From Hydrolagus colliei (taxonomy: Eukaryota), in assembly GCA_035084275.1 (NCBI GenBank), contig CM068746.1, positions 17,112,001 through 17,176,000 on the forward strand: a stretch of 64,000 nt of DNA, in the 5' to 3' direction. This document shows positions 4,081 through 42,000 of this stretch, piece by piece (within the stretch, counting starts at the first letter, position 1; every line of letters begins with the position of its first letter). Made by a program: the position numbers and the translations under genes. The notes beneath the pieces were generated by a model, which saw nothing but the letters and a program-made list of their open reading frames with translations, searched no databases and was not told the origin of the DNA.

Positions 4081-4526
4081 GTGTGCAGGTAATACATGCA
4101 ATAAATAGAGCCCATAAGTTTGAATAGCTATTCAGGTGATTACTCGCACCGCAATATTCTGCATAGTCGGAGGTGCGTGCCATGCTTGGAAGAGGTGTTA
4201 AGCGGAAGTTCCATTTATCTGTTCTATCTCAGGTAATAGTTCAAAATGATAGGGAAGTTTCTTCCAGTACGTTTACTCACAATCAATTAACTATTGATTT
4301 ACCTCATATCTTGCCAATATACTCGCTGAACTGCTTAGAGATGTTCCAATGTAGAAAAAAAAGGATGCTGTATATAAACTGAACCAAATATTCTTTAGCA
4401 ATTTTCTGATATTAGTCTTGAATGATATATTTACACCAAAGAATGAAAATTTCCAATGGTTTTTTTCCAAACCTTTCAGCACTCAAAGCTGAATTCTATA
4501 AATAAGAAAAACTCTTTGTCCTTAAG

Positions 4527-11885: not shown

Positions 11886-12269
11886 TACACAGTAAAAGCT
11901 TGGTTATCCGGCACCCAACCAACACCAACCAGAACGCTCAACCAACCAGTATCTCCCAATACAATTCACCATTCCAGTAACCAGATCTCATACAGGAGCC
12001 ATCTGGTATACTCACTTATTAAGCTTACCGAACGTTGGAATTTTTATTTCACTGAACATTTTACCGAGTGTGCTGGAATGCTTTATTTGGTAAGCATCCA
12101 TACAATATTCTGTTATTATTTTGTCTATTATTAACATGGTATGTTTTAATATAAGTTTAATATTTTTGTGTAGGATGTTTGGCAACTTGCCACTCGAATA
12201 TCCGGCATATTTGATTAGCCGGCATCGGGCAGGTCTGAGGGTGCCGGATAATAAAGCTTTTACTGTGTA
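11886..12269. mobile_element. Tc1/mariner (Tigger-like) MITE
   Basis: TIRs TACACAGTAAAAGCTTGGTTATCCGGCACCC / GGGTGCCGGATAATAAAGCTTTTACTGTGTA with TA termini. Confidence 0.8.
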
Positions 12270-12659
12270 TACAAAATCAATATTGGCAGATGAACTGCAG
12301 GTAAAGAGGAAACACTGCAAAAAAAAATTAAGTTGAATACAAGACAATTGACTATGCGCTGGCACATTTCCCCAGAAAAACTGTCAAAATACTTCCAATA
12401 TATTCTGTGAAGCACTTTGAGACGTCTCATTGATGTGATAAGACATGATATCAAATACAAGGATTATTATTAGTATTATTATTATCACGACTGCCCTGTA
12501 ATAATGCATTTGCTATTTCGAGTTTCTCCTCCTAGCTAGGTTCAAATTTGTACTCGGATCCTCAAAACATCAAATTTGTATTCGGATCCTCATAAAATCT
12601 TAAACAGTCGCCCGATACTCAGTTGTGAGATTCTGGTAATTTATATTCTGGAAATTCAG

Positions 12660-12990
12660 TTTGGTGCAGTGTTGAGGGAGACTGTTGTGCTGGCAATGTA
12701 TTCCTTCAGATGAAACATTAAATTGAGTTTGCGCCTGCCTGTTCAGTTGGAAGTTAAAGATCCCATAACACTATTTGAAAAGAATAGGGAGTTTTTTCTG
12801 GTATCCTGGTTAACAATTCCCCGGACAACATCGATGTTTCACTTCAAGTCTGTTTATGGGACAGTTAAATTCGCTGTCGCGCTCACATCCAAATGCAGTC
12901 ATTGCACTCTACAGAAAACACCATGCTGTGAAATGCTTTGATATACTGTATTTCAATGTTAAAAAGTTACTTTATGAAATGCAAGAATTA
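12660..12990 (+). mobile_element. Ancient Deu-domain SINE (SacSINE/AmnSINE-like); similar copies at ~810-950(-), ~42570-42880(-), ~57200-57390(-)
   Basis: GCAGTGTTGAGGGAG...CAGATGAAACATTAAA...AAAGATCCCAT..CACTATTTGAA core, matched from memory of the Deu consensus. Confidence 0.6.
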
Positions 12991-13039
12991 TTACTATTCA
13001 GACTCCTATCCTCATTCCTTGTGAATTAAGAACTACAGA

Positions 13040-13620
13040 AATTACATTGCATGAGACCAGTCAGCTCATCAAACTTCTGCTGGTGTTATCTCCTCCCCTG
13101 GTACTATATTACCATAATTCCAGTTCACCAATCTGTCCTCATACTTTTGGGAAAAAATAATTGCCTAAGGGCTAAGGTTCAAATAACACATTTAGTGAAA
13201 CATACCACAGTCCAATCATCCTCTGTGTGATAAATCAGTTTCTCACCTTAGTTTATACCCCTTGCTATTTATTTGTCAACCTCTTCCACTAAATCTTGCA
13301 CAATTTATCATCTCATAATCTTTCAGGAATTTAAGACCTCGATTTGATCCTCTCTTAACCTTCTGTGCTCAAATGAACACCAACCCAATTTTTCAAGCTT
13401 ATCCTCATAATCATAACCCTCATCCACATGAATCAAGGCCATACTTTCTCCAGGGTCCACAATGTGCTTTTCAAAATAAGACTGCAGACAATCTTGCACT
13501 GAGACACAATCTTGCCTAATCAACTTTTTGCATCATTTTTTAACATTGCTTCCCTACTTTTGTATATTAAAACTCCTAAAAAATATATAAAACCCAGTAT
13601 TCCATTTAGTCATCTATTTT
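13040..13620 (-). mobile_element. Old CR1 fragment
   Basis: LEKLGWCSFEHRRLREDQIEV on the minus strand. Confidence 0.65.
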
Positions 13621-16600: not shown

Positions 16601-17605
16601 TTTAAATGATCCAAACCAGAGTATTTTCATTGGACGTCTATATCTCTATTGAGCACACTTTGCACTTTTTGAAATTGTGCACAATATTCAACTTTCAGGC
16701 TCTACAAGCATTGTTCTATTGCAGAAATCAATGAAGCTTGAAGAATCCACCATGAAAGCTTCAATCACCTTTAGAATACAATTAGACACCGTGCTTCAAG
16801 CAATGCCAGTATAATCTCTGCCAAAAGCTTGAAAAGACCCAGTGGCAAAAATAATTGCAACTTGCAATTTCACTACAACGTGTAAAGATCAGGGCTTCAC
16901 AAATCTCTTCCCTAGTCTTTAACTGCCATGTAGTTTTAAAGGGGAACCAACCATTTAAAAAAAAATAGCCAACACTAGATACCGGGTGTTCCATGTTCCT
17001 ATGAACACACACCCTTACTCAAAGTGCGTAGGGAGTGGAGAAAGTAGGTGTTAACTTGTACAGGGCACCCACAAAGTTGTGATAACTACCCTTTTACAAC
17101 AACAACTTGGATTTATACGGCGCCCTCCACGCCAGACAAATAAAATCAAGTCAAAAGACTTTAGACATTGCAATGGTATCCTGACTTTTTGGTCGCCCTG
17201 TAGTTCATCTAACCTGGCTTATCTATTGATCTGCAAGTCCTTTAGATGATACAGAACATCTATTTAGCTAACATTAAAACTTGGGGTGATACACAATGTA
17301 CAGTGGATGTTAAACAACTCACTGTTAGTAACCGCCCTGTGGAAATTTTGATCCTTATTAGTAGCTTGAATCAAGGTTTTAACTCCCCCTCCCCTAAAGC
17401 TATTATTGCACTACAAGAACATTTTTCATGTTTATTTTCATTTGTGTACTGCTTTGTCCTGTTCCAATTCACGAAGCTCTAATATCTCTTTTTAGAGGAG
17501 CTGCTGAACCACATTGTAATTCATCCAATAATTGCCTTCTCTGTTCAGCTTTGAAAATTTGTTGTTATTCCCACCTTTATTTTCCTATTCAATTTCCTTG
17601 TTGTC

Positions 17606-18005
17606 CAGCTCATTCAGAACACTGCCGCCTGTGTTCTCACCTGCACCAAACCTCACTCCCTGATTACCCCAGTCCTTGCCATACTTCACTGGCTCCCTGT
17701 CCGGGAGAGGATCGCTTTCAAGATCCTCACTCTTGTTTTCAAATCTCTCCGCTCCTCTGCGCCCCCTACCTCTCTGACCTCCTTTCTCCCCAACACTGCA
17801 CCCATTGCCTTCACTCCTCCGGTTCTGGTCTCCTCCTTATCCCCAGGATCCTCCGCTCCACTGTTGACAGCTGTGCCTTCAGCCACTACGCCCCAAAGCT
17901 CTGGAACTCCCTTCCTCACTTCCTTCACCTCTTCTCTTCCTAGTTTTAAATCTCAGCTGAAGACCTTTCTTTTCGACTGCGCCTTCATTCACCTTTTCCA
18001 TTGTT
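17606..18005 (+). mobile_element. L2 3' fragment
   Basis: IQNTAA...LHWLP...AFSHYAPKLWNSLP...FKSQLKTFLF. Confidence 0.85.
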
Positions 18006-18035
18006 ATTTAAAGGATAATAATGTTGTTTTAAAGG

Positions 18036-18343
18036 ATAATAATAATAATCCTTGCATTTGATATATCGCCTTTCATGTCTTCCAGACGTCTCAAAGCGCT
18101 TCACAGAATATACTGTAAAGTGAATTCACTGTATATTTGTGGCCGAAATGCACAGCCAATTGCACACAGCAGGGTCCCATAAGCAGTCATGGATTGAATT
18201 GATCAATTTACTTTGTTTTATTTGAGTGATTATTATAGACGTATGAAGTAAGGAATCTTGCCCAAGGATTCGCCCTGCCTGGATTCAAACACAGGTCTTA
18301 CCCTTGTAAGGCAAGTGCTCTTACCACTGAGCTACAGGACTCC
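18036..18343 (-). mobile_element. tRNA-derived SINE, full length
   Basis: Family head, core and tail present. Confidence 0.9.
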
Positions 18344-20188
18344 ACAAGGATGGCACTGGTCTTCAAACAATCTACCTTAGAGTAACTATTATGACTCTGT
18401 TTGATAGGCTTAAGTTTGCCCAGCAAAGGTTACGTACCGAGATTGTGTAACATGTCGACCCTATAACAGATTGAATTTTGTGTGCTATGGTTGATGGAAG
18501 ATTGTAGCACTGTTGCATTCAATTTCTGAATAATCTCTGGGTCACTCAGATGAACCAAATGTAGGAGAGAGGCATACCTTTTGGCTCCCTAACACACTGA
18601 GTCAAGAAGCAATCATGCGCAACACTTTACAAGCTCAGAGTCCTTCACAATTGGGTATTGGCAAAGTACATTCGCCTGCATTACCTTGTTTAGTTTTGCC
18701 TCTTAATACAACAACATTGCAATTATCACCATTTCATTTTGAATACTGTATTGTATTGTATCTGGCCTGCTTCATGTCCCCTGACCCACGTGCCCCACCA
18801 TTGGCAGGCAAGCCTCCAGCTACTTTGCCCCCAACCTCTGGAACTCGATCCCGAAATCCCTCCGCCTCAACTTGTCCCTCGCCTCAATCAATCAATCAAT
18901 CAATCAATCCAAACTTACATTTATATAGCGCCTTTCATGTCGACAGGATGTCCCAAGGCGCTGTACAGTTAGGTAGGGATAAGAGCAGGGGGGGGAGGGG
19001 TCGGGGCAGGATGAAGAAGAGTAGGAAAATTGACTGTATATTTGTGGGCCTCCTTCAAGTCTCAAGATCCTCCTCTTCAACGGTCCCATCGGTCACTCCT
19101 AATCCCCCTCTTTCCCTCCAATCTTCCTGTCGCCAGCTCGGATCTGAAAAAATGGCCGCCCAGCGTCTTGAGACGTCCTCCTGACATGAAAGGTGCGTTA
19201 CAAGTGTAATTTTGTTGTTGTTGATTTTATTTCATTCAATTTTTGATCTATTCGGTTTGTTCCCCATACTTCAATTTCAGACTTCAATTCATTCTTATCT
19301 GCTCCATACTCCAAAAGTCGGTTGAAATGAATCCCAAATGTTAGTCGTAATTTGTTCCAATAGCACTGCTCTCCATCTATTTGTTCCTTTGCACAAAGAA
19401 GTTCTCAAGGTAACTAGAGTTCAATTAAGGAAGGAATTTTGAACCGTGTTAGAGTTACTAAAATATTGCCTTCAAGTACACTTTATTCACCTGTGTCATT
19501 CAGAAATGAAACAGAGGGAAATGATATTTTGATAACATTTTTTGCAAATGAATTCACTTCCAACATTCACTTTAGCCTGCCCTCTGCAAATTCCATTGTT
19601 TCTTCTCAAAACTGAAGTACAGCAGTTTCTTTCAGCTACTGTCTGATTTTGTGAGGACAATCCTGGTGAAAAGAGTATGTATAATAATGGCCATTTGAAA
19701 CGTGAGAAGAGAAGAACAAGAATGGGGGCACTCAGCTCATCCAGCACAAGTTTGGTCACTCACTCCATGAGTTTGTTTATGGGACATTGCTGTGCGCGTA
19801 CCAGATGCCTAATTCGCCCACAAAATCGGCCACAATCAATCCACTGTGTCGTATATCCTGCCAAACATTTTGAGATATCTCGACAGTGTGACAAGGCACT
19901 TATATCAAATGTAAGGGTTAGTATTTTTATGATTCCACTTATCTGGATAATTTTGCAATTCCCACTTTACTTCCTGTCGTATGGTCATCTCCAGACCTGG
20001 ATATACCCTCCTCTTCTTATATTCAGTTCATTTATGGAACATAAAAAGCTGGGGGCCTCAGTTTCAATCAGCAATCCTTCAGATTTGTGGAGCACTAGAC
20101 ATTCAAGTACATATATAAAAGATGGATAATGTCAAATATTACCTTTAAGTCCTTTTCCCCCCCACCCCCAATTCCAATTAACATCGCA

Positions 20189-20490
20189 GGGTCCTGCACT
20201 TCAGTAGTTAGAGCACTCGTCTTACAAGCGAAAGACCTGAGTTTGATTCCTGGCAGGTCAGGGTGAAAGCTTGGGCAAATTTCCTTACTCCACACCTGAT
20301 AACAATCCCTCAAAAAAGCATTGGTCACTAAATCCACGATTGTTGTTGGACACTGCTGTGCACAATTGGCTGCGCATTCAGCCCACAAATATACCATCGA
20401 TTCAATTTACAGTACTGTATATTCTGTGAAGCACTTTGAGACGTCCAGAAAACGTGTAAAGCATTATATCAATTGCAAGGATTATTATTA
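20189..20490 (+). mobile_element. tRNA-derived SINE, full length
   Basis: Family head, core and tail present. Confidence 0.9.
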
Positions 20491-22060
20491 ACATTAAGCA
20501 CTGAAGCACACCTCAATCTACATTGAAAAATAATTCCTGACTTAAAGTTACTAAGGATATTAATTATTCAAAATGGCTATTTTTTTACAAAATTAACTGC
20601 AACACCAATATTTTGAGCAAAATGCTGAATTTAGGAATATTTTTTTCAGTGACGTAGATTTAACACACATTTAATTCTGTCTCCAATCACATATAATTGA
20701 GCCAGAGCTTTGGTGGATTGTATAGATACATTACACCAAGGCCTCCAAACAAAATGGAATGAACCGATACAGTTCTCAGAACAAGGACACCTCAATACCA
20801 ATACAGGTTTCTTATGTAGGTCACCAGAATCCTTCTTTAAGATCCCATTAAACACCAGCCCTCCTCATTCAGGTTGCATCTTCTCTAGTGTTGAGGAATG
20901 AACTGCTGAAAGTATAAGGTTATTTGTTCTTCCCACTTAACTACTGTATTTCAGAGAGTACTATACAAGACGTGGCATTTCAAGAAAGTATTTGGCATTT
21001 TTCAATCAAACAATTACAAATAAAAAAAATGTAAATGCAGGTTTTTTGAGCCTCCTATCCATAGAAGTGAGTTAAGGGGAACAATTCCTCCTCGAGTATT
21101 GAAAGACTTCAAAACAGAATACTGTACATACTGCACACGTTCCAGTTAATTTCCCCAGAAATGATCAGTTAGAACTGTTGTAAAGTTAAATTAGACACAC
21201 GCTTGAAATATTAAACATTTAGAAAGCACCAGAACCAATGGTGAGCTGGAAAGTAACCAACTTATGTTTTATTTCTGAAACTGGATCCCACGAAGGGTTA
21301 AAAAAAAATGACACAAACAAACTGTAATAAAACTGCTTTTATGTCGGATATTGATGGCATTATTAAGAATCACAGGATTCCCACAATATGCCACAGATTC
21401 CCCTACACGGGCTCTGTGTAACATCACTGTCTTCCATCAAGGGAAAAACATAAGACATCCACACTTTAGCAAAAATGCAACAAGAATAAAATTAGATGCA
21501 GCATTTTAGAAATCGTTCTAAAAAAAAAACCAGCCCACCCCTTGTAGTTTTTTTTTTTATATAAGTCCACAAACCTTTTGTTTCCCCCATTAAACGCCTG
21601 CTTCACCCCGGCTTGTTCCAAACAGCTCCATCTACACATGACGAAACGCAAATTACCCCAAAAAAAAAAAAAAAATGACTGTGGCAATGGAAGGCAAATG
21701 TTTTCTGGGGGAATTTGCTGAAATCACATCATCATCATCGCAACTCCCTCAGATTCGCGATCATGTCACGCGTGGGGGAGGGGAGGGGAGGGGACCAGAC
21801 AAACAAACAAAAAAGAAGTCATTTCCATCAGGATGGAAATCGGATGAGATGCAGAGAAGGTTTGTCCTGAGTTACTCCGGCTCCGCTGTGCCACAGGGTG
21901 CACCTGTTAAGAAACAAGGCTGGAAATACCCCAGTGATCCGCTGCGATTCCTCGCACCTTTTTTGTTTGGCAGGGAAACAGCTCGCAAGCGCCACCCCTC
22001 GCCCCCTTCTTACCATGTAAGCAGATTTCTTTATCCATCAGAAGCATTAACCAGGGGAGG

Positions 22061-22855
22061 NNNNNNNNNNNNNNNNNNNNNNNNNNNNNNNNNNNNNNNN
22101 NNNNNNNNNNNNNNNNNNNNNNNNNNNNNNNNNNNNNNNNNNNNNNNNNNNNNNNNNNNNNNNNNNNNNNNNNNNNNNNNNNNNNNNNNNNNNNNNNNNN
22201 NNNNNNNNNNNNNNNNNNNNNNNNNNNNNNNNNNNNNNNNNNNNNNNNNNNNNNNNNNNNNNNNNNNNNNNNNNNNNNNNNNNNNNNNNNNNNNNNNNNN
22301 NNNNNNNNNNNNNNNNNNNNNNNNNNNNNNNNNNNNNNNNNNNNNNNNNNNNNNNNNNNNNNNNNNNNNNNNNNNNNNNNNNNNNNNNNNNNNNNNNNTT
22401 GTATATGTCTATGTGTGTGTGTTGTATATGTCTGTGTGTGTGTTGTATATGTCTATGTGTGTGTGTGTTGTATATNNNNNNNNNNNNNNNNNNNNNNNNN
22501 NNNNNNNNNNNNNNNNNNNNNNNNNNNNNNNNNNNNNNNNNNNNNNNNNNNNNNNNNNNNNNNNNNNNNNNNNNNNNNNNNNNNNNNNNNNNNNNNNNNN
22601 NNNNNNNNNNNNNNNNNNNNNNNNNNNNNNNNNNNNNNNNNNNNNNNNNNNNNNNNNNNNNNNNNNNNNNNNNNNNNNNNNNNNNNNNNNNNNNNNNNNN
22701 NNNNNNNNNNNNNNNNNNNNNNNNNNNNNNNNNNNNNNNNNNNNNNNNNNNNNNNNNNNNNNNNNNNNNNNNNNNNNNNNNTTGTATATGTCTGTGTGTG
22801 TGTTGTATATGTCTATGTGTGTGTGTTGTATATGTATATGTGTCTGTGTGTGTGT
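22061..22855. other. Assembly gaps (22061-22398, 22476-22781) within a (TG/TA) microsatellite; a third gap lies at 37796-37930
   Basis: Runs of N flanked by TGTGTGTTGTATATG repeats. Confidence 0.98.
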
Positions 22856-23200
22856 TGCTCGTCCCTTGTTTCCTCTAACCCAAGTCGCCAACAATAAATG
22901 CGAATCGCTCACTCTCGTCCAACAAACACAGAACAAGAACTGACCGCTTTTCAACAGGAGGTGGGTTTCAACACGGGGTGGGGGGGGGGGGGGGAAATCA
23001 CAGTGTGTACAGAGAGAGAGAGGGGGGGGATCACTGGGCTGCAGCAGTCAGGAGATGTAGTTGAGAGATGCTCTTGTGGGTAGCAAAGGCACAAGGGGAC
23101 AACCCTTTTCCTCTCTCTCTCTCTCTCGAGGCACAAACCTTGTTGGAGATGATGCAGAAGCCAATGCGTATTTCTTTCTGCCTCTTTATATGTGTGTGTG

Positions 23201-23235
<35 letters not shown>

Positions 23236-23490
23236 CTGTCACATTTATTTCATCCACACTCTGCCCCTGTCAAGGCAACACGGGCAACATCACCGACTGT
23301 GCTGGGAATGGGCTCTGAGACTGAGAGCTGGACTCACACGTAAATCGTGTCAACGTGCAGCCAAAAACGACACCGTGTGTATGTTGTATCAGCCGCCTCC
23401 CCCAATATAAACCCTCTCCCACAAATAGACCCCCCCCCCCCCCCCCACCTCTCTCTCTCTCTCTCTCCCTTCCTCTCTGAATTTTGCCTT

Positions 23491-23918
23491 GCCCTGTGTT
23501 TGATGCCCTGTGTTTGATGCCCTGTGTTTGATGCCCTGTGTTTGATGCCCTGTGTTTGATGCCCTGTGTTTGATGCCCTGTGTTTGATGCCCTGTGTTTG
23601 ATGCCCTGTGTTTGATGCCCTGTGTTTGATGCCCTGTGTTTGATGCCCTGTGTTTGATGCCCTGTGTTTGATGCCCTGTGTTTGATGCCCTGTGTTTGAT
23701 GCCCTGTGTTTGATGCCCTGTGTTTGATGCCCTGTGTTTGATGCCCTGTGTTTGATGCCCTGTGTTTGATGCCCTGTGTTTGATGCCCTGTGTTTGATGC
23801 CCTGTGTTTGATGCCCTGTGTTTGATGCCCTGTGTTTGATGCCCTGTGTTTGATGCCCTGTGTTTGATGCCCTGTGTTTGATGCCCTGTGTTTGATGCCC
23901 TGTGTTTGATGCCCTGTG
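23491..23918. repeat. Perfect 14-bp minisatellite (GCCCTGTGTTTGAT) x30 plus a partial unit
   Basis: 420 bp of identical units from 23491 to 23910. Confidence 0.98.
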
Positions 23919-24788
23919 CCTCTCCCCAGCCAGGGAGAAATCAAATCCACAGAGAGAGAGGACAGTCCACCTGTTTGTATTATATTAAACCCTGCGGGTT
24001 TTGAGATCTAATCACATCACATCACACCAAGCAATCAACACATGTACACGTTTAATGAATGTCCTTACAAAACTGCCACAACTCCTCACTCCCCGTTATA
24101 TGTATATATATATATATACACTGTGTATCTATGTATATATGTTCTGCCCTTCTCTTCTCCCATATTGCTCACAGCCTCCCCTCCATCTCCTCTTCTCCCC
24201 CGCCTCCCCCCCCCCAGGCTTGTGCATGTGAAGCGAGCAGTCGCTAGAATGCGCTGGGTGCAAGTTGCCCACTCTATCTCCCTCTGCGATGGGATGGGAT
24301 GGGAAGGGAGGAGATGGTTTGGGAAGAGAATTGGAAATCCGCAGTTTTCACTGGCAGCACCCAGTGGAATTTAGTAAGTACTGCGTTTCCTCTCTTCCCT
24401 GAAAACTCCAGGCATGTTGTGAATGTTTTAAAACAAAAATGTGTGTGTGTGTGGGGTGGGGGGGGAGGTGGGGGTATGTGTTCTTTCAAGAGAGTAACGA
24501 TAGGCAGTTATTTAATTCACCTGTTTCTCTCTGAAACAGTTCTTCCTCTCAGTTCTCACCTGTGCAGCCTCCATCCACTGTTTGCTGGGAGCTGTCCCTG
24601 TCAGCACTCACTGCCCCCACCCACTCTCTTCCCAACTGGACTAACATACAGTCCTGTACTTTATTTAGTGTTACCAAGGCACAGGAGACTATACAAGGTG
24701 TCCATACAGTGTCAGGAGCGAGTGCAGAAACATTACCACCGGCCATTGGATTGGAGTCAATGCAACGCCATACCATTTACGTTCACGT

Positions 24789-25104
24789 GGATTCCTGTAG
24801 CTCAGTGGTTAGAGCACTCGCTTTACAAGCGAAAGACCTGGGTTTGATTCCTAGCAGGTCAGGACGAAACATTGGCCAAGTTTCCTTTCTCCAAACCCCT
24901 GATAATAATCCCTCAAAAAAATAATAAATTGGTCACTCAATCCATGACTGTTGTTGGACACTGCTGTGCGCAATTGGCTGCCGCGTTTCGCCCACAAATA
25001 TACCGTCAATTCACTTTACAGTATATTCTGTGAAGCGCTTTGAGACGTCTAGAAGACGTCCAGAGGTGAAAAGCACTATATCAAATGCAAGGATTATTAT
25101 TATT
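24789..25104 (+). mobile_element. tRNA-derived SINE, full length
   Basis: TAGCTCAGTGG A box, GGTTTGATTCC B box, GGATTATTATT tail. Confidence 0.9.
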
Positions 25105-25985: not shown

Positions 25986-28900
25986 CATTCAGGTTTTCAG
26001 GTAAACGGGTACATTACAAATTCACTCCAAATATTCTTATGTTCTTCTCTCATAGTTGTCAGTGGGGTATGTATCTACAGTGTATGTTTATAAATAAATG
26101 TATTTAAATATCCACACAACATTTTATGCCTTTGATAAGGACATCTGTCTGTCTAGTTTGCCATGTATAATTTCACCCAAGTATCTTCCATAAAGCTTTT
26201 CCCCCCCACTACAATACTGCAGGATGGTAAAACACAACAGGACTCAAAACAGACAATAATTTAATTTGCACAACCAGCTTTATGAATACGTCCTGATTTT
26301 GATATTCAGCATGTACAATATTTTGATTGATTAATACATCAATTCATCAACCACATCATACATTTTCCTCTAAATATTATTTAAATGTATCTGGATATGA
26401 TGCAGTTATTGCAATACAATATTTGCCAAATGCAACAATAACAAAATAGCTTTGATGTACCATATCCCAATCAGAAATAACATCTCAGACTGGAGTCACA
26501 AATGGAGGGAAATTTTAGAAAGCCAAGAGAATCTTACAGCTGAGAAGTTTCCATTTGCAGACATTAGTCCTGTAACACACCTGCACAATTGTAAAATGTC
26601 TGGTTTAATATTCTTCTTAGGGGTTGTTGTGATTTCATTGTCAGTGTTATTTTCAACGAGACAGGCTCTGATTGCATCAATTAGACTTGGCTTGTCGAGA
26701 AGGTTTAAAGGATTTGCAAGATAAACTTTAAAAGACATTAGAGTTTTACAGCTAGGAGCACAATGCAGAATTGACCCATCACCAGAAAACAAATGTAAGC
26801 AGCAATAAAACAATCAGTAGATCAAACATGTCTTGTTATCCCCGAATTTGTACTTGATGTAGGATGCATAAATTTGTCTGGTTGGAACGATAATGCAGAA
26901 GGTTCAGCTATACATAAATATGTGACATATTTACTTATACTTCCTAATCCAATAACCTGTTCACCACAACCTCAAATGTATTGCCTCTTATCTCATTGCT
27001 ATCTGTGCTGATTGCTTGCCTGGTAATCTGGGTGGGCTTTAAAGGACCCTCTTTCAAAGAAAAATGCAATTTTTCTCCCAGTTATTCTGGTCTATATTCC
27101 TCTTCGTTTGGGTTCACCCCATATTCAAAATAGCCAGTTACTCGGTTCATTGTTGTTTGCAAGACATTGTTGTTGCAATTTAGCTGCTATGCTTGCCTGC
27201 ATAACAATAGTCATTTCATGTATAAATTAGATCTTTTAAGATGTTCCTTTTCAATGTGAGAGGTGCTACACAAATATAAGTTATCAGAACATTTGTTATA
27301 GCATCTTGTCACACAGAGGGATCTCAAAGCACCCTACAGTACTTACTGTCAAGTAGTGACTGTTAGGCAAAAATCCGAGTTCCTAATTACCTGTGTTCCC
27401 TTGATACTTTATCTTTTCCTCCGCACGCATCCCAGCCGTGCATGTTTCCATAATCTGTAACATTTGACTTTATCTTTTTTTCTATCAATAAAACCTTAAA
27501 TTTCACGTTATTCTGCATCTCCATAGCAATTTCAGTTCCATTAAAAAGGATACAGGGCCTTTATCAGCAATGTCAGTAAGAATATAACTATTACTCCTGA
27601 TAAGATAGCTTCTTGCTGCTGTAGGCACACTTCAAATGCAATAGGTGCCAGCAAGAAATGTCTTTGAATTGACTTTGTAAGGCCATAATGGGCTGTGAGA
27701 ATCTAAAGAATATATTCAAATATTTGGAATAGTATGGAAATAAGATTGCAGTGGTTAGATGGAGGGCAAATGCAGCAAATTACAGATTAGCATGAGTTTT
27801 TTTAAACGATTTTTCCCCACTTTTTTTTCTAGCAAATGAGTATGCGAGTGGATAAATCAAGTATTCTGTGTAATGATTGCAATGGTGTATGATTACGACG
27901 TCAGCCTGTATAAGTGGATCTGCTTATTTAATCTTTCATTATTTTCTCCACGGATCCTCTTGCTCCCCCACACCACGCTCACTTCTTCACCTACAGGCCA
28001 AGGCCATTCACAAAACTGCAGTGAATTGACACATTTCCTGATCCACCAGGAATCCCACATTAGCATTGCAGTGAAGGCATTCCTTCCTCCCAGTCTTTTC
28101 AATCAAGATCAGCCGATAAATTATACAAGAATAATATTATCCAACAAAACATCTCAAAATGCCTAACAGAGTGAGCTACTTTAAATTGCTGTTATGTTCC
28201 CAGCTAGTATTTTCAAGCAAAATTCCAACAGTAATGAGATGCATGACCAAATTGAACCTGTATTTTATGCTGAATTTGGGAAAATCAGGGAAAATATTGG
28301 TCCAAGCTGAACAAATGAGTTGGGTAAAACTCCTCTATATCTGGGGACACAGTTTGTGACACTGCTCTTTTTTGAAACAGTATCACTGCAGAATTTGTCA
28401 AAGATATGTGAAAGGGAATATATAAATAAATGTTATTGTTGTTCTTTATCAAGAACAACAGGGCAGAGGTACAATACCTCTAGGCACAGAGGTATTGTAC
28501 CTCTGCCTTAGTGCATTGACTAGGGCAGAGGTACAATATTTATTGAATTCATTCAAAATCTTACTATATCTACATCGCGGATTTTTAGGACTAAAGCAAT
28601 TGCAATTTTCAGATGCTGGTTACATATAAAATCTGCATTTTGTCAGTAACTTGCATTTTTGCGGAGATTTTAATCTTGTGTGTGGAAAAAATGGTGGAAA
28701 ACCTTGTTATTTACACAATTTATTTTGCATAGATTCTTCCATGGTTTTACACAATTTTTTCCACACATAAGATTAAAATCTCTGCAAAAATGCAAGTTAC
28801 TGACAAAGAAGAAGAAAGATTGAAGATGGTGGGACGATGGGGGGAGAGTGCAATGGACACTACTGCAGAAGTGATCAATTGATTAAATTTAAGTTGTACT

Positions 28901-29029: not shown

Positions 29030-29590
29030 GACCATAAGAATTAGGAGCAGGAGTAGGCCATTCGGCCCCTTGAGCCTGCCCCAGCATTCAATAAGATCAT
29101 GGCTGATCTTCTGACCTAACTCTGATTACCTGCCCCATCCCCATATCCCCTAATCCCTATATATTTTTTTAAATCTATCAGTCTCAATCAGCCTTGAAAA
29201 TGTTCAGGGACTGAGCATCCACAGCCTTCTGGGGTAGTGAATTCCTTAAATTCACTACCCTCTGAGTGAAGAACTGTTTTTTCAACTCAGTTTTAAAAGG
29301 CTGGCCTTTAATCTGAGACTATGACCCTGAGTGTTAGATTCATTGAACACATTCAAGACTGAGATCAACAACAACAACTTCAATTTATATAGCGCCCTCC
29401 ACTCAGGACAGTGTCTCAGAGCGCTTAAAAAATCAAGTTTTTTTAAAAAGATAAAGTGAATAAGAGATATGAGATAGGGCGGGGAAATGGAATTAGGATA
29501 GAAGATCAGACATGATCTTATTAAATGGCGGGGCAGGCTCGAGAGGCTGAATGACCTCTCCTGCTTCTACTTCTTATGTTTTTCTTATGT
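29030..29590. mobile_element. Two CR1 3' fragments in opposite orientation, with a short L2 tail inserted
   Basis: Minus copy ~29030-29340 and plus copy ~29340-29590, each with CR1 tail motifs. Confidence 0.75.
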
Positions 29591-30190
29591 GTTGGTTTCC
29601 GAGAGCCAAAGCAATATTGGATTGTCAGAGGAGATGTATTGCCCATGTTACGGTCTCTTATGGCCTAGGTTGTCAGAGAATTCATTGTCTAGACTATGAT
29701 GAAGAATAGATCAGTTAGATTTCTCCCTGGTTGATGCCGGATGCATTCCTCAGCTTTGATTTGTTTCTTTATCACACTGAGTGTGTCTCACTTGACAGCT
29801 TAAGAGGTTTATGTATAAAGTTGGAGATAACATTACCTATTATGTTTTAAGCAGGTAGATTGATCTATACTTGTCATATTTCCGTAGGTGGGGTGGATGG
29901 ATAATCAAGAAGAGTCACTCTTCTGACAAAGGTACAGTATTAAACCTGAAGTTATTCTTCGATCGTAGCACTTACCTATATGTGTGTTGATACTTTCTCC
30001 AGAATTTAAAAAACATTCAGAAACTATTCAGTAGCCTTTTGATCATCTTTTGCTGACCTAAGCCCCTGTGGCAATCCATCACTATACTTAAGCAAATCCA
30101 AATCCAGACTAAATTCCACGGATGGACACAAGGAAATTCCAATCTCTGGAATAAGCAACATCTCCCTGATTTGTCATAATATAATTTTGT

Positions 30191-30501
30191 GGAATCAGCT
30201 CAGTGATTAGAGTACTCGCCTTACAAGTGAGAGACCTAGGTTCAATTCCAGGCAGGGCGAAATCTTGTGTACGTTTTCCTTATTCCACACGCCTAAAAGC
30301 AATCCCTCCAAATAAAAAACAATAATAAATTGTTAATTCCAATCCACAGCTGTATGTGGGACACTGCTGTGCCCAATTGGCTGTCGCATTTCACCCACAT
30401 ATATACAATCAATCCACTTTACAGTATATTCTGTGAAGCGCTTTGAGATGTCTATATAAATGACATGGAAAGCGCTATATCAAATGCAAGGATTATTATT
30501 A
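30191..30501 (+). mobile_element. tRNA-derived SINE
   Basis: Family head, core and tail present. Confidence 0.9.
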
Positions 30502-30899
30502 TGAAAAATAATGACTGTATATTTTGTAGGTGATCAGCAGTGCCCGAGAATATTTTGGATCTACCTGGTTCAAGAATCGTACAACGAAAACCTCCCAGAG
30601 GATTGACTTGATCACAACAAGCATTCTCTTGCCAAGCAGGACATAGTGGAGACAGTTCAGCTTCAACCTGGTTTGCCTCCTTCCACCATCACCCACCACC
30701 ACAACAGTAGAACCTCGGTTGTCGACCACCTCAGTGGCATGACCACCCCCACTTGGCGACCATCAGAGTCAGTCCCAAATATTTCCTAACTCATTTCCAG
30801 TTAAATAAACCTCTCTGACGAGACAACCCCGGTTCCCAAACCGCGACCGCTGATTTGGCCGTTCCCAAACAACATTTTCCTGGTCCTAACACGACCACT

Positions 30900-31019
30900 C
30901 TGGCCAATCAGGCTGCGGCGTGATGTCACCGAGACAAGATGGCGGCGCGGATTTGAAGAGGTCACGTGAGCGGCCGTTTTGTCAGACAGTAAAAAAAAAA
31001 AGTGAAGCTGCAGGTAACA
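30900..31019 (+). promoter_or_regulatory. CpG-rich promoter and first-exon signature inside the TIR element
   Basis: CCAAT 30904, YY1 AAGATGGCGGC 30936-30946, GGCGCGG+TTTGAA (CDE/CHR-like) 30944-30957, E-box GTCACGTGAG 30961, donor CAG|gtaaca at 31014. Confidence 0.65.
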
Positions 31020-31044
31020 GAGCATCCGGCCCCGCGGTCCCGAA

Positions 31045-31500
31045 CATTTCCCCCGGCCTCGAGTATCCTCACTGCCCCGATTCCGAGACGCCTCCTCCGA
31101 GTATCTCCCTCCCCCCTCGGCCTCCAGACACTCACTCCCTGGTCTCGAGTATCCCCACTCCCTGGGCCCCCAGACATTCACTCCTTGGTCTCGAGTATCC
31201 TCCCTCCCCGGCTCCGAGACACCTCCTCCGAGTATCCCCCTCCCTCGCGGCCTCGAGTATCCCCACTCCCCGGTCTCGAGTATCCTCCCTCCCTCGCCGG
31301 CCTCGTATATTTCACCCTCCCCCAAGACTCCCCGGCCTCGAGTAATTGGAATTGAAAGGATTATCTGAGGTTAAGATCGGCCATGATTTAGTTAAATGGC
31401 ACAATGGCCTATTTCTGTTGCTATTAGTATTCTTTCTCCCCCCCACCAGCCTCGAGTATCCCCCCCACTCCCCGGCCTGGAGTACCCCTCCTCCCCGGCC
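31045..31500 (+). repeat. ~30-bp degenerate C-rich minisatellite (CCCCGGCCTCGAGTATCC...) interrupted by a CR1 3' fragment (~31345-31435)
   Basis: Recurrent CTCGAGTATCC units. Confidence 0.8.
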
Positions 31501-33110
31501 TCTCCGACTCTGCATGGATGGTAGCCAACTGTTTAATCTTCCATCCAGCAGACTCTACACCTCACTAACGCGACCACCCCGCCAACGCGACCACCTGCTC
31601 GTGGTCCCGTGGGTGGTCGCGTTACCGAGGTTCTACTGTATTTGGTCATTTGACACCCATGGAAGAGCAGCTTCAATGAGGACAAAAGCTTTAGCAATCC
31701 CCATAGTTTGGAAGAAACTGCATCACTGATATAATGCTTAGTTAGTCCTCTATTCCTTGCATTTCAAGATGGACAAGACTAACCTTTCATCTTGCTCCCT
31801 TTGTATCTGTCTTTAATTCATGCCTACACTCACCATCCCCACACCGCACCACTCACTATTTGACACCGTCTCTGTGAAGTACTCCGAGACATTATCCTAC
31901 ATGAATGGCGCCATATAAATGCAAGTTTTTCTCTCCTCACTATGATGAGACTGGGGACTGACTGAAACACATCAAGGTAAGATTTAGAAACTAGCACAAA
32001 GAGTATGTGATCACATCTGCCTTATGAATTATTTCTGCCAGATAAAAACAGACACAAGCTGATTTAATCTGTTCAGCTCAGTATCTGAATATGATCCATC
32101 TGCATTTCTCATGCTGTCATTTCCTATTGACAATGGCAACGGTTTTTAGTTTGCGAGCATCTGTTTCTGATTCCATGTGCAAATGTCACTGACTCATACA
32201 GCACCAGTTATAATTGTTGATTTGAAAAAAAATAAGGAGAAAATCAACAAGAACTTGTATCGGAATAGGAAATGTCTGTCATATTTTGGACAGCTCATTA
32301 AAAACAAGTTAATGCAATTGCTTGCACTTCCTGTAAATGTCATTGCCTCATATGGCAACAGAAGCATCATCGTTAGTTGAAGAGACATCAGCTACACTTG
32401 TCACTCAAGCCACTGTTTTCAAAGTTGGCGTTTTCTGTCAAATATTGAAAGGAAGCCTTACTCTGCATATAATAGAAAATGTGAAGAGGTGACTAAATTG
32501 GTGGAACTGGACTATCCAGTAGAAAATAACATTTCACCTTTGAGACATTTAATACCATTCTATCTCTCAGGCTTTTAGAGCTGATAAAGGTACTTTGCAA
32601 ATGCACAATTGGCTCATGTTTTGCCCACAAAAACCCAGTGAACCACTTTAACATGTCTCGACAATGAGATAAAGCACTATATGAAATGCAAGGATTATTA
32701 TTGAACTGAAAGCAAATCAGCTCATTTTATTGAAAATGATGGTAGACGTGATAAAGGTCTTAAAAATTATGAAAAGGTTTGACAGAATGGATAGGGAGAA
32801 ATGTTCCATGACGCAGTGACTAGATGGCAATTTAAGATAGTTAGCAAACAAAAGAAGAAAATTGGAGCAATATTTTCAAAGAGTTGTTAGAATGTATAAT
32901 ACTGCGCCAAGTGCCTTGGTCAAGGCTGGATTTATATTAACTTTCAAGTGGGAACCAGATATCTAAAGAAGAATCAGTGGTATGAGGAAAAGGTAGGTAA
33001 ATGGAGCTAAATGGATTATGGTTTCAAAATCAAGCAGAGACGATGAGTCAATTGGCCAATCTAAGGGCTAAATCTGAAGCAGTTACTACAACAACAACTT
33101 GCACTTATAT

Positions 33111-33438
33111 GGAGCTCCTATGGTTCAGTGGTTAGAGCACTCGCCTTAAAGGCATGAGACCTGTGATGGAATCCAGGCCAATCAGGGCGAAACCTTGGGC
33201 AAGTTTCCTTATTCCACACACCTAATAATAATCCATCCCCCCCAAAAATACAATAAGAAAAATTGGTCATTTTCAATCCACGACTATTTGTGGAACACTG
33301 CTGTGCGCAACTGGCTGCCGCATTTCACCCACCAATGTACAATCAATTCATTTTACAGTATATTCTGTGAAGCGCTTTCAGACATCGATAAGATGTGAAA
33401 AGCGCTATATCAAATGCAAGGGATTTTACTATTATTAT
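33111..33438 (+). mobile_element. tRNA-derived SINE inserted in a minus-strand L2 tail
   Basis: Flanked by ACAACAACTTGCACTTATAT and TATAGCACC. Confidence 0.85.
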
Positions 33439-35489
33439 ATAGCACCACCCATGCAGGTTAGCATCTCAGAAGGCTTAGTTTAAAAAGAGATATGGGCAAA
33501 CAAATAGGCAACAAAATAAAACAGGATTTGATTGCTGTCGTAAAATGCAAGGTATTGAAAAATCCAAGTCCCACACATTTTGTTTGTCACCTGGGTGTAC
33601 TCTTGTTTAAGAGTATCCTAACTGGACTGAGATTTACATATGTATGTCATTTAAGCATGTAAAATACCCTGTAACTGGAATGGAATGTACACTCTCTTCC
33701 CAGAGGGATGCATCCTGCCTAATGACACAATGTATTTAGCCCAGGTCGGCAAGAGCCAAGGCTTGGGGAGCCAATGGGTATACTGCTTGAGTTCCGTTAG
33801 TTAAAAACACAAATCTTATCACATTCACCCTCTGACAAGTTTCCCACTGCTTGTCCATCTAGAACCATTGTACCCATCAGAGCTTTGTCTTGCAGGGTTA
33901 ACAGGAGCTGAGTGGGAAGGAGACGTCAGTGTCTCCAAGTTCTGCAAACGAGCCAGGCAGCGTGATCTGTCATCACAGACCAACCTGGCTCAGGATCCGA
34001 CTACTGAGATCGCCACAGAGGATTGAATCAACCCTGACATTTTATTATGAAGCACTTCATCTTGAAGCCAGCTCAGCAAGGTGTGTTCCTCCACGCGGAG
34101 CGCGCTCTTCCTTCCAAACACAGGGAGATTCTCACATGTAGGAAAACGTCACATGTGGAATTCTGTCTGGTCCGAATACTTTCAAGCTTGGTGATGCTTC
34201 CACCATGTCAGACAAACAAAGTAGGCGTCAAAGCACCGAAACCACGTCATCAAAGTGGACCCACACAGCTGCAATGAGAGTCGTAATTCTCTATTAAATC
34301 GCGCTGCTCACTCGCAGTTTAAACAATTGCTAAAACGTATGCAGTAAAAGCACAGCATGGTTAATGATCTCATTAGCCTGGGCTGGAATCTAGTTTGAAA
34401 GGTCAGATCAGATTGAAACGCACTCTTCGCAATCAAACACACTCAAACGCATGCCTCGCAAGTCTCCCCAGCTCCACTCTTTAAAAATTCCAGCTCATTC
34501 AGAACTCTGCTGCCTGCATACCAACCTAGACTAAACTCCGTAACCCCTATCTCACCAATCCTCACACTCATGTTAAAATCCATCCAGTCGCTCCGTGCAG
34601 GCAGCACTTAATAGTAAAGTTTAACACTGAGCTGGGAGAGGCAAGGTGACAGCCGCCACGATCAAAGGGGAAGGTCTTCACGTGCGATCCGAAGACGAGC
34701 GAGGAGGGATTGAGACAGAGTGTTTCGGTGGCATAGCCGCGATTGTGGAGGGGACGAAGGACGAGCCGGGATGGGGAGCGAGGTGTGAGGTGACTGTAAA
34801 CACGGTCGAAAAGGAAGGTTTTCAGGCGGGACTTGAAGAAGGGGTGAGAGGGGGGGCCAAGGTGGAGGAGTGCAGTGGCTGAAAGTTGGGGCTTTTAATA
34901 TGGCTTATGTCAAACTTGCAAACAATATATGATCTTTAGCTGTATACGCAGGAAGACAGAAGACTTAGGGCGGCAATCATACCATTTATATGGAACAGAC
35001 TTGTTCTGTTTTACTGTATTTTACGCTGGTCATCAAATATACTGATGTATTTGCTGCTGTTTATATATATTATACATATATATTTAATAAAACACACAAA
35101 ATAAATTTTCTGATTTACTCAAATTGTCTATTCTCCCACCCTGGCAGGCTGCCTCCAACTAAACGAGAGACCCTGTTTCAAACCCCCTCCTCTAATCTGT
35201 ATCTTTTTCTATTTCATTCCCACCCCCCAAAGGAGCAGTAAAAAAAAATTACGCGGAAAAAAAGGCGCCTCTAATGACTTTTGAGGGTTTGTGTGGTTTT
35301 ACCATCTGCTCCCCTTTCATCCTCTCGCTCTTTCTCTCTCACCCACTTTAATTTGTCCTGTTTGCTCAGCTCCCTGTCTATTGTAAAGCAATTATTCCCG
35401 ACCATTTGAGCCCAGTCCCCTCCCACCCCCAACAGCTCAGCTGATCGCGCCGAGCAACGCGCCAACAATCCCGGAAAACAATCTCCATC

Positions 35490-36994: not shown

Positions 36995-37170
36995 CAGCTC
37001 AGTCACAGTCGCGCCCAGGTTCCGCGCCAAACAATCCCGGAAGCGCCGGTGCCGCGGGCGCGGGCTCCCATTGGTCAGCTGCCCCGCAGTGTATCGGCTG
37101 CTCGAGGCCCTGATTGGCCAGAGCTCAGTTGGAATGTTGGAGCGCGCCAGAAAGCCTGGATTTAGCGGGT
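36995..37170 (+). promoter_or_regulatory. E2F7 proximal CpG-rich promoter
   Basis: E2F site TTCCGCGCCAAA 37020-37031, ETS-like CCGGAAG, inverted CCAAT boxes (ATTGG 37070 and 37113), E2F-like GCGCGCCA 37142 and TTTAGCGGG 37161. Confidence 0.8.
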
Positions 37171-38735: not shown

Positions 38736-38919
38736 TTATTTGTAAAATATTTATACAAATATATAATTTATCCAAATGTATTAAACATATTTATTTATAA
38801 AAAATAAAAAGCGAATACAGTAGGCAGCCCACTTAATGTTTCATTGGATGAGTTGCAAATTATTATGATGAGAGCAACTAGCTTTCATTTTAATCGTTTT
38901 CGTTTCTTAGGTGGCAAAG

Positions 38920-39015
38920 ATGGAGTGCTTGAAACTAAAAGACTTGAGTGCGCGGAAAAACAGATCCGATTTCTCTCCAGACATCCTGAAAGATGAAAGC
39001 AAAATTGCACAGAAG
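38920..39015 (+). CDS. E2F7: E2F7 coding exon 1 (MECLKLKDL...IAQK); exon starts 38911
   Basis: ttcttag acceptor at 38910, AAGATGG Kozak context, AAG|gtaact donor, 96 nt, phase 0. Confidence 0.9.
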
Positions 39016-42000
39016 GTAACTTTTGAACAGTTTGAGTTCCACTGTCCAAGTCTAAAATGAGAAATTCTCTACACTTTATAAGTCCGGGTGCCGCCCCATT
39101 GGATTTGTAAAGAAAGAATAGCAAAGCAATGATACCTGAAAAAGTGCCTTTACTTAAAATTTGCAACCAATATATTGTATTTTTACCAGGTTTTGTTTTA
39201 ATGTACAGTTAACTAGCAAAAAACGGGTAGATCGACTAGTTCCCAATGCCCTGCGTTCAGGTGCCCACCCAGCAGTGTCAAGCTCTTTCAGATGTCTTCC
39301 AGGCGTGAAAAACGCTTTATAAATGTAAATTATATTGTACACGTACGTTGTTGTGATGCCTCTTTAAAAGGGTTGTCATGATGAATGACAAGTAATGTTA
39401 AAATTGCTACATAAATATTTTACTACAACATGTCAGTGAGCTAACTACAATATGAATTGTAAGCAAGGCCCATTCACTTCATATTTAATCAAGCATCGGA
39501 AGAAATTGTACTTGTTCCTCTGGGACTACAGACGCTGTTCAATGGGGTGCGGGGGGGGGGGGGGGGGGGAAGCACTGTACCAAATACTAGAAAGCGATTG
39601 TCACAATTTCTTCCTAATTTGTTCCGCAAAGGTTGAAGGTCAGATTAAAGGTTGAATCAAAGATCAAAGGATCGAATAAAGATTGGTTTAAAAAATCATT
39701 TGGCAGAAGGAAGAAATTGAGAACCAGAATAATGTCACACAGTCTATAAGACAATGTGATAATATTCTTTGCATTTGCATGCTGTCAAAACACCTCAAAG
39801 CGCTTCATAGGATTTACTGTACTTCAACATTTGCTATAGTGCTTTTTGTGTCTGGAGGGTGTCTGCTTCACAGGATACACTGTAAAGGTGAGCCACTCTC
39901 GTGCGTTTGGTGGGGAATCTGGTTACAGGGTTAGGTAACCAATTTGCAAAGTATTGATGGTAGTATTTCAATGTTGGATTTCGCCTAAAATTGTCAACCT
40001 CATTACTGCTTTGTCTGAGATTCATTGCAAATTAAATTGAGTTGATTGACTTCCTTCTCTAAGCCCCGTGTTTGCCTTGTTTGGAGGAGGGTTCATTTGC
40101 TAATGGCACATTTGGTTTTGTTAGGAAAACATGTTCACAGAGCCAAGCAGGACCTTGCCAAGGACACCGGTGAAAGCTGAATTGACACCGGCTGCTGTTT
40201 CGAAGAGGAAAGGCTGTACTCCAGATCATATTCAGATAACTCCTAATAAGCACATGGACAAGTCCCAGTCTGATCCATGGTCACCCACCGCTAACCTGAA
40301 GATGCTAATCAGCGCTGCCAGCCCTGACATCCGCGATCGAGAAAAGAAAAAAGAACTGTTTCGACAAATTGAAAACGAGCGGGTGGAAAGCATCAGCGAT
40401 GTTATTCAGGTGTGAAAACCGCGGGTTTTTGTTTTCAAGTTTATGAATGGTTCGGTGTTCTCTCCTTTCACGATAGAAACCTTCCAGATCACCTCCCCTC
40501 CTATAGTGTCACTCCACTCATAATATTCAACCTAAGACAGAGCTGCCAACCCTCCCGATTTTTGCGGAAGCCTTCTGCTTTTACATGCTCCCTTCCGCCC
40601 TCCCGATCCCAGATAAATAACTTCCGTTTTTTTTGCCATTTCACAATTTAAGCTAAATCCCCCTTGCACCACCTATGTTCACTGGGGAAGGATGGAAGAA
40701 ATCAGTTTAATGGAGAAGAGAAAGACGTGATCATTTCTGCAAAGAAGATTAGTCATTTATATGCAAGCAACTAATCCTGGATTCTTTTTGATTGGTGAGC
40801 GAGGTTCGGGCTGCTCACCTCCATTAACTGAATTAGACCAAAGCCTTCCACTTAGGGAACGTGGATTGTCATCGCACATGCCCCATTTCTCCCCTTCCCC
40901 CTCAAACTCTTGTAGCCCCCATATTGTTAAAGGACATTGAGAATAAATGAAGATCAAATAAAACTCAACTGTCATTTGCCAAAATATGCTGCAGAAATTG
41001 CCACACGTGGGAGGGACACAAAGGGAAGGCAAGTGTGGTGTAGATCATAACTTTTTTTAAAATTTTGTGCGCCCAACACTAAAATGAAGGTGTCCAGGGT
41101 GCCTGGATGCCTGTTAATGTCGAGCCCTGGCTTAACTATTGGCTGATACTGAAGTGATAGAGGCAATAACAAAATCCTTCCTGAAAATGTAACAAACCTT
41201 CCTGAAAAATTACTGCAACCTTCCTGAAAATCTTCCTTGAAGGTTGGCAGCTCTGCTAAGATAGACAGTCAGGCTGATTGCTGTTGAAGAACAGAGACGT
41301 GCAGAATTTTGGCCTTAGTCTTGATAATGCTTAGTCACTTTTTTTTTAAGAAAAATGATTTATTTTCATTCTCTTTTCCATTCTTTACATCTTAATATAC
41401 AATAGCTCAGAAAATTGGTCATTTCAATCCACAACTGTTTGTGGGACACTGCTGTGCGCAATTGGCTACCGCATTTTGCCCACAAATATACAGTCAATTC
41501 ACTTTACAGTACATTCTGTGAAGCGTGTTGAGACGTCAATAAGATGTGAAAAGCGTTATAGCAAATGCAAGGATTATTATAAATGCAGGCAACCTTCTCA
41601 TTGCTTCTCTCGAGTCTGTCCATAACCCACCATCGAGCAGCTGGGAACGACTTCTTGGTGAAATCGAGAAATACAAGTGCATTTTTTTTTAACAACTAGA
41701 TACAGAAACAGCTAATTCAGAGAGTCAGTGATTTTCCTTCTGAGGAAAAACATAAGAATTTGCTGGGCGAAGGGAGGCCAAGGTCCATCCTGCCAGTCGC
41801 TTGACATGCCTTGTCCCAAACTATATACTGTATCCCGATATTAGTTTCTGGCAGAAATCTATCTTAATTTGTTCTATACACTTGCTGCTTTGACTGTCTC
41901 CCGAGAGAGCCTGTTCTGTAAGTTTGCTATTCGTTCACTGAAGTAGTGCGCCCATGGACTTGTTCTGAATTTACCCCTCCCCATTCGATCGCAGGCCTTG

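Follow-up and report, generated by a model that had tools for sequence, protein, structure and literature searches.

The 934-bp element found about 5.5 kb upstream of E2F7 in Hydrolagus colliei is one worn copy of an abundant, short, non-autonomous family of pogo type, and its promoter-like motifs are common to the whole family. This shared block is probably the native promoter, with the non-coding first exon, of a transposase gene since deleted. Positions below are those of the window, the whole 64,000-nucleotide stretch of contig CM068746.1 that was analysed. A previous sequence-only reading of the window had described a DNA transposon carrying a cell-cycle-type promoter directed at E2F7.

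Architecture of the Element

The ends of the pogo-type element are located at 30705 and 31638 of the 64-kb window. The outer 15 bp of both TIRs are identical; the next bases differ (3 on the left versus 4 on the right), and are followed by CGACCACC. This 15-mer has only two exact matches within the 64 kb, which are the two ends of the element. From left to right, the features are:

30703..30704, no strand: left target-site remnant, AA in place of TA (sequence; family contigs match from 30704, with loose ends before 30704)
30705..30730, + strand: left TIR, 26 bp, putative 5' end, near-identical to the Trichuris trichiura pogoR TIR (row of PMC7386202 Table S1)
30724..30898, + strand: six direct GACCAC-type subterminal sites at 30724, 30741, 30758, 30822, 30845, and 30893, putatively transposase-binding
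30902..30968, + strand: promoter-like block (motif search; multi-copy in 4/4 contig runs), made of the following five sites
30902-30910: NF-Y CCAAT site (CCAAT at 30904)
30921-30928: CRE-like TGATGTCA
30936-30946: YY1 site
30952-30957: lone CHR TTTGAA
30961-30968: E-box GTCACGTG
31011..31019, + strand: predicted splice donor CAG/GTAACA, exon end at 31013 (motif match)
31044..31344, no strand: C-rich 23/46-bp VNTR, variable among copies (repeat analysis; family joints skip parts of it)
31345..31430, + strand: ~85-bp retroelement 3' tail piece (loose ends at 31344 and 31400; contigs run from the VNTR through the piece)
31438..31502, no strand: second short VNTR block (repeat analysis)
31559..31611, - strand: right subterminal region, which when read from the right end gives GGGACC and then two inverted GGTGGTC sites
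31612..31638, - strand: right TIR, 27 bp, putative 3' end
31639..31640, no strand: right TA target site (sequence; family contigs diverge from the reference after 31640/31641)

The 26/27-bp TIRs are of the short CAGT type (<=40 bp) of the pogo superfamily, and the TA target site agrees with it as well: the right TA is intact, and the match of family contigs extends through 30704 and 31640. In the E2F7-side copy, the duplication of the target is imperfect (AA left, TA right). Two degenerate subterminal sites become GACCAC with the family majority letters at 30825 and 30849. The outline drawn by the sequence-only reading holds, from the element itself with its ~27-bp TIRs to the CGACCAC subterminal repeats (5/5 heptamers of the window lie inside it), the CpG-rich interior (CpG o/e 0.85 in the element versus 0.47 in the window), and the absence of a transposase ORF, as no Pfam family reached the cut-off in five of its open frames, nor in one frame of the left flank. 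The TIRs delimit a single element, since family contigs join the left and right halves. Contig joints from 30742 to 31531 and from 30973 to 31546 span both halves, so that an origin of the TIRs in separate, unrelated insertions is rejected. A second element behind the raised depth of the left flank was also considered and rejected, a decayed SINE piece being the likely source.

The conserved parts of the family are about 30705-31040 and 31490-31638. The VNTR at 31044-31344 contains 26 of the 60 CpGs of the element. The retroelement tail piece, which we take to be CR1-like (LINE), is also present in other family copies and is similar to 29502-29529 of the window. Both were absent from the earlier reading. 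A tail scrap within a MITE represents a TE-in-TE capture followed by amplification.

An Abundant Non-Autonomous Family

Public DNA contigs were aligned to 30505-31854 at 80% likeness in four of the 12 runs listed (X4, organism A, whose label is also that of the best-matching runs; X6, organism B; X7, unlabelled; X12, organism C), with thin coverage of the flanks in X7 and X12. The listing contained no RNA run, a fact that has no bearing on expression. The runs aligned 1,527 (X4), 1,001, 488, and 141 contigs. Summed depth, which is no copy number and is taken here only as a sign of very high numbers, for the block and the ends alike, was in X4 about 21 over the right flank, 12,400-18,900 over the block (30865-30999), 6,600-25,000 at the left end, and 14,000-18,900 at the right end, placing block and ends at about 300-1,200 times the flank depth; the corresponding values in X6 are about 185-250 times for the block and 110-650 times for the ends. 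The loose ends of X4 contigs cluster at 30704 (20 contigs) and at 31640/31641 (18 + 22), and their agreement of 0.41-0.45 indicates unrelated flanks departing at TA sites. This pattern at both TA ends is common to all four runs. The copies are therefore as in pogo MITEs: many, dispersed, with different flanks, and without coding capacity.

The sequence-only reading had proposed a BLAST-style copy test, in which a multi-copy interior linked to a transposase would mean a native promoter. With contigs as a stand-in, its first half is borne out, as the interior is multi-copy and the block as deep as the TIRs, but the transposase link was not seen: no contig runs into a transposase among the rows listed, which comprise 24 of the 486 loose ends, 15 of the 92 joints, and 32 of the 3,300 pieces.

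The Promoter-Like Block

Each motif named by the sequence-only reading is present, namely CCAAT at 30904, YY1 at 30936, TTTGAA at 30952, the E-box at 30961, and the donor CAG/GTAACA at 31013/31014. The CRE-like TGATGTCA at 30921 comes in addition to these, and the family majority letter at 30924 converts it into the perfect CRE palindrome TGACGTCA. The NF-Y site begins 3 bp past the last subterminal site. The combination of NF-Y, YY1 core, E-box, and CRE-like sites was found in 0 of 20,000 dinucleotide shuffles of 30840-31020, for motifs picked after viewing the sequence. The predicted donor at 31013/31014 and the one predicted for E2F7 exon 2, at 39016, are both of the GTAAC class, and donor variants among family copies retain AG/GTAACG. 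All motifs had been said to point to E2F7; this is the case for YY1, the CHR, and the donor, but not for the E-box and the CRE, which are palindromic, nor for the CCAAT box, which works in either orientation.

Two further observations concern the block. The YY1 motif contains a strong-context ATG opening a 5-codon ORF (MAARI-stop) at 30939-30956, possibly a uORF of the ancestral transposase mRNA. Promoter variants also exist in the family, since two X4 contigs carry 27-29 extra bases directly after the CCAAT box (30912), with CACATG and a G-rich, Sp1-like run.

End Polarity and Class

The ends were compared by eye with the rows of Table S1 of Gao et al. 2020 (PMC7386202), taking the first 400 bases of each element only. 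Rows that start with a TIR and direct repeats reach a transposase-like ATG within 400 nt (Agrilus, Halyomorpha, Latimeria, Spodoptera frugiperda, and Zeugodacus); rows that start with the GGGAC layout continue into AT-rich or antisense sequence. Among them, the Nematostella pogoR row displays a TIR, GGGACC, and two inverted GGTGGTC sites, a layout as at the right end of the element. Because the direct-repeat pogo rows lead to the transposase ATG, the left end appears to be of the 5' type, and the motif block would therefore have the place and direction of a transposase promoter. Comparable words are found in these rows: the Halyomorpha row harbors CCAATCAG at the transposase-promoter position (PMC7386202), and in a full-length whale-shark Tigger row, the 200 bp next to the TIR contain TGACGTCA, GTCATGTGAC, GATTGG, and CCATTTT. 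A donor-like GAG/GTAAGC is present near base 390 of Trichinella pogoR rows (PMC7386202), a lead only. The word AAGATGGCGG has 0 occurrences in the first 400 nt of the elements in that table.

The closest row seen is pogoR, yet in this by-eye comparison Tigger rows, too, agree with the element over the first 16 bases of the TIR. With the pogoR rows Trtr-pogo, Neve-pogo2, and Haha-pogo (Gao et al. 2020, PMC7386202), the element shares a CAGT-start 25-27-bp TIR ending in GACCAC(C), the TA target, and asymmetric subterminal repeats. It differs from the pogoR members of this source, which are about 2-4 kb long, by its 934 bp without transposase, and by the GC-rich motif block, the VNTR, and the LINE scrap inside. 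As to Tigger, the Scleropages and Pomacea rows (PMC7386202 Table S1; PMC9219625 Table S1) are close to the first 16 TIR bases, and the 5' end of the whale-shark Rhty-Tig1B has in its vicinity, like that of the element, CRE, E-box, CCAAT, and YY1-like words. The GACCACC tail that the element possesses is, however, absent from the Tigger TIR rows seen, and the element has no transposase (CENP-B_N/HTH_Tnp_Tc5, DDE_1, DD29-59D) whose phylogeny would place it. The Passer family was considered and rejected, as the Passer TIRs given in PMC9976928 begin with CCGT.

A TIR pattern scan of metagenome contigs returned two eukaryote-like loci of the same TIR class, at L001:770-846 and L002:1666-1752, and no transposase was recognised on reading either of them. 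The second is a very short element inside an apparent intron. The same scan of viral contigs gave 0 loci.

Origin of the Block

The course of events favoured here would start from a full-length pogo-type element that lost its transposase through an internal deletion. The deleted element would have kept its 5' end, comprising the TIR, the six binding sites, the NF-Y/CRE/YY1/E-box promoter, a short exon, and the donor at 31013, and its 3' end as well. After acquiring the VNTR and the LINE-tail scrap, it would then have spread to many TA sites by means of a transposase acting in trans. One copy would have inserted 5.5 kb upstream of E2F7, with a 50:50 chance of its direction toward the gene, and is now decaying.

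That the block might be the transposon's own promoter was one of two options of the sequence-only reading, and it is the favoured one, the interior being multi-copy and as deep as the TIRs; the transposase link that was to accompany it is the part not seen. The word "native" rests on position and analogy, since no transposase-bearing contig is among those listed. According to Palazzo et al. (PMC6446368), the 5' terminal region of the Tc1/mariner elements Sleeping Beauty and Hsmar1 contains a promoter that is active. These tested promoters are AT-rich and "blurry", whereas the block of the element is GC-rich.

Possible Cell-Cycle Control

By the definition of Mueller et al. 2014 (PMC4176359), a CDE precedes its CHR by four nucleotides. 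In the element, GC-rich words stand at distances of 1, 3, or 6 nt, and the place of a CDE at 4 nt is occupied by the pentamer CGGCG. Of the CDE/CHR pair claimed by the sequence-only reading, the canonical CHR TTTGAA at 30952 is retained but the CDE is not, its spacers being 1, 3, or 6 nt and not 4. The wrong spacing leaves a lone CHR within a general promoter motif set. The element agrees with CHR-only promoters in having the canonical sequence, and with the CHR and CDE/CHR promoters described in PMC4176359 in combining TTTGAA with an upstream CCAAT box; those of the CDE/CHR class have their CDE 4 nt from the CHR, unlike the element. According to the same source, a CDE accompanies the CHR in no more than 23% of CHR promoters, a CHR by itself can be functional, and CCAAT boxes are common basal promoter elements.

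The "cell-cycle type" label is weakened by the CDE spacing, by the single intact CCAAT, and by the general nature of YY1, the USF-type E-box, and the CRE, although the lone CHR may work. The motif set would thus be of a general housekeeping type, for which cell-cycle control is possible but not indicated. In its strongest form, cell-cycle control would mean that the block is the family's own promoter gated by the CHR, with DREAM repressing it in G0/G1 and MMB/FOXM1 activating it in S-G2/M. Such gating, which would time transposase output to dividing cells and is compatible with the native-promoter reading, is rather unlikely. The canonical TTTGAA is located 48 nt downstream of the CCAAT, near the likely start site, it carries no majority change among the 40 of 200 differences listed, and most CHR promoters are without a CDE (PMC4176359). 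The hexamer, however, arises in 22% of shuffles of 30840-31020 and occurs 83 times in the window, the spacing to a CDE is wrong, and the one intact CCAAT is an example of a common basal element.

Possible Capture of Host DNA

The other option of the sequence-only reading, a Pack-TIR capture, fails in its single-copy form, since the interior exists in many copies, with a depth in X4 on a par with that of the TIRs. The interior of a Pack-TIR occurs in one or few copies and is absent from the family consensus; here, all four runs contain many copies of the block, and its coverage in X4 resembles that of the TIRs. A capture in the family ancestor is another matter: a host housekeeping promoter and first exon would have been taken up once, and the resulting Pack-TIR amplified to high copy number. 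This is unlikely, even though the motif set is GC-rich and host-like, the family holds a captured LINE scrap, and no autonomous partner is seen among the contig rows listed. In Tan et al. 2021 (PMC8277862), multicopy Pack-TIRs tend to take GC-rich DNA, with one frog case involving a 5'UTR piece. The same source, however, makes multicopy cases rare (1.4% of animal Pack-TIRs) and low in number (few copies each). The block, moreover, adjoins the last subterminal site and faces as a transposase gene would, and full-length pogo rows have CCAAT or CRE motifs at the same position. Like the Pack-TIRs of PMC8277862, the element has a non-coding interior between TIRs, and it holds one foreign piece, the retroelement tail. 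It is unlike them in its high copy number, in a motif block that looks continuous with the transposon end, and in that no host parental copy was identified within the window. The interior of a Pack-TIR would match a non-TE parental copy of the host at 90% or more, and the window offers the block a match of 15 bp only.

CpG Decay and Probable Methylation

The comparison of the E2F7-side copy with its family covers the 40 of 200 differing places listed, of which 36 are inside the element. The 5' arm displays at least 16 majority differences in 336 bp. CG-to-TG/CA changes affect at least 6 of at least 29 family CpGs in this arm, and at least 22 of the 29 survive. In this partial table, CpG transitions amount to 6 of 58 bases (10%) versus 4 of 278 elsewhere (1.4%; Fisher p=0.0025), and all changes to 7 of 58 in CpGs versus 9 of 278 elsewhere (p=0.010). 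One CpG change strikes the centre of the CRE. The CCAAT, YY1, CHR, E-box, and donor core show no change among the 40 of 200 differences listed.

The sequence-only reading had taken the retention of CpGs as a sign of an unmethylated element. This is contradicted by the CpG-biased decay relative to the family majority, a pattern that fits a likely methylation of the E2F7-side copy in the germline. The high CpG content of the element is inherited from the family.

Relation to E2F7

The downstream gene is indeed E2F7, as had been proposed: exon 40125-40403 has 95% identity with E2F7 of Callorhinchus milii, while its identity with shark sequences does not exceed 76%. The features of the gene, both outside the element, are:

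37009..37140 (about 37000-37140), + strand: predicted promoter belonging to E2F7 itself, in which E2F-type sites and two CCAAT boxes occur (motif search)
38911..39015, + strand: first coding exon of E2F7, ATG at 38920 (gene prediction)

The predicted E2F7 exon-1 donor is at 37534, and candidate AG acceptors are found at 33895 and 38910 (junctions 33896/38911). Two similar E2F-type cassettes, at 35433-35480 and 36997-37045 (CGCGCC...CGCGCCAA(A)CAATCCCGGAA), enclose a C-rich tandem array of 1.5 kb that directly precedes the E2F7 promoter; this array may be an expansion within a regulatory element that had been duplicated.

The broadest scenario considered is that a MITE family spread a complete NF-Y/CRE/YY1/CHR/E-box promoter and donor over hundreds of chimaera sites, DREAM/MuvB-gated, with the ancestral transposase timed to dividing cells and some copies, perhaps that of E2F7, driving cell-cycle-timed host transcripts. 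Taken as a whole, it is decidedly unlikely. The co-option of the E2F7-side copy, whether its role would be that of an upstream promoter or of an enhancer and its target E2F7 or a lncRNA, with splicing from 31013 to 33896 or 38911, is very unlikely. It could draw on motif cores that look intact, on the YY1, CHR, and donor facing E2F7, on the candidate acceptors just mentioned, and, as a hint, on an insertion that appears common to organisms A and B. These points are set against the CpG-biased decay, CRE centre included, the differences from the family majority (at least 16 in 336 bp), and the predicted promoter and first exon of E2F7, which would have to be skipped; with many genomic copies, some copy near a gene is expected anyway. 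The element is probably not used by E2F7.

Regarding the age of the insertion, X4 record 8 spans the left junction and has 1 difference there. The right junction is reached on unique flank by X4 record 15, with 0 differences, and by X6 record 23, with 3 differences in 241, these two records carrying only 24-25 TIR bases, below the 31-base rule. Because of this shortfall, the sharing between organisms A and B gives a hint that the insertion may be older than their split. No empty-site joint is present among the 15 of 92 joints listed, below which a single-copy joint would rank.

That the block was captured as a single copy by gap filling in cis, with the E2F7 promoter nearby or some other gene of the vicinity as its source, has a vanishingly small probability: a 15-bp exact match links 30898-30912 to the E2F7 promoter at 37109-37123 (E=0.035), and single-copy Pack-TIRs often copy DNA within 15 kb (PMC8277862), but the match is merely an NF-Y site with its flanks, the rest of the block matches nothing else in the window, and the block is multi-copy in 4/4 runs. 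The two 15-bp stretches are on opposite strands, and are likely a case of convergence.

Wider Setting

The element belongs to ordinary transposon biology: the MITE family of which it is a member is of pogo type, has pogoR-like ends, and is abundant in a holocephalan. In the surveys as cited, TcMar DNA makes up 0.03% in chimaera (PMC12361510), and pogoR transposons are listed in one vertebrate only, Latimeria (PMC7386202); the family is a modest addition on these two grounds. The promoter cassette that it preserves is structured and GC-rich, in contrast to the Tc1/mariner promoters tested, which are AT-rich. Were the CHR functional, a DNA transposon promoter would be tied to the DREAM/MuvB cell-cycle switch, and the family would supply a vertebrate genome with mobile promoters of this kind. 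Plant MITEs amplify transcription-factor motifs, including E2F sites in Brassicas, as described in Morata et al. 2018 (PMC5950925). In both cases, MITE families spread regulatory motifs to many sites; the plant MITEs spread one motif, whereas the vertebrate pogo-type family would spread a whole promoter-like cassette with a donor. The literature search, with repeat libraries (Repbase, Dfam) outside its scope, found no description of this pogo-type family among the papers listed, and no paper combining DNA transposon, internal promoter, transposase, CCAAT, and YY1, which does not establish that none is in print.

Several other repeats were observed in the window. A search of 29500-35400 against Rfam returned one tRNA-like SINE head only. 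This SINE has copies at 30197-30500, 33090-33430, 24780-25100, and 20190-20490, the Rfam tRNA match being at 30197-30252, and a decayed antisense SINE piece is located at about 30510-30570. A 68-bp, 93% inverted repeat with a 33-nt loop lies at 28639-28807, a cluster of 20-bp palindromic repeats at 28462-28538, and inverted 85-nt retroelement-tail pieces at 29055-29557. The stretch 3501-5500 is CpG-dense and AT-rich, with an o/e of up to 1.6. Finally, the gap-containing stretch 21600-24400 harbors microsatellites and a long 12-bp array, and may be the 5' end of another gene.
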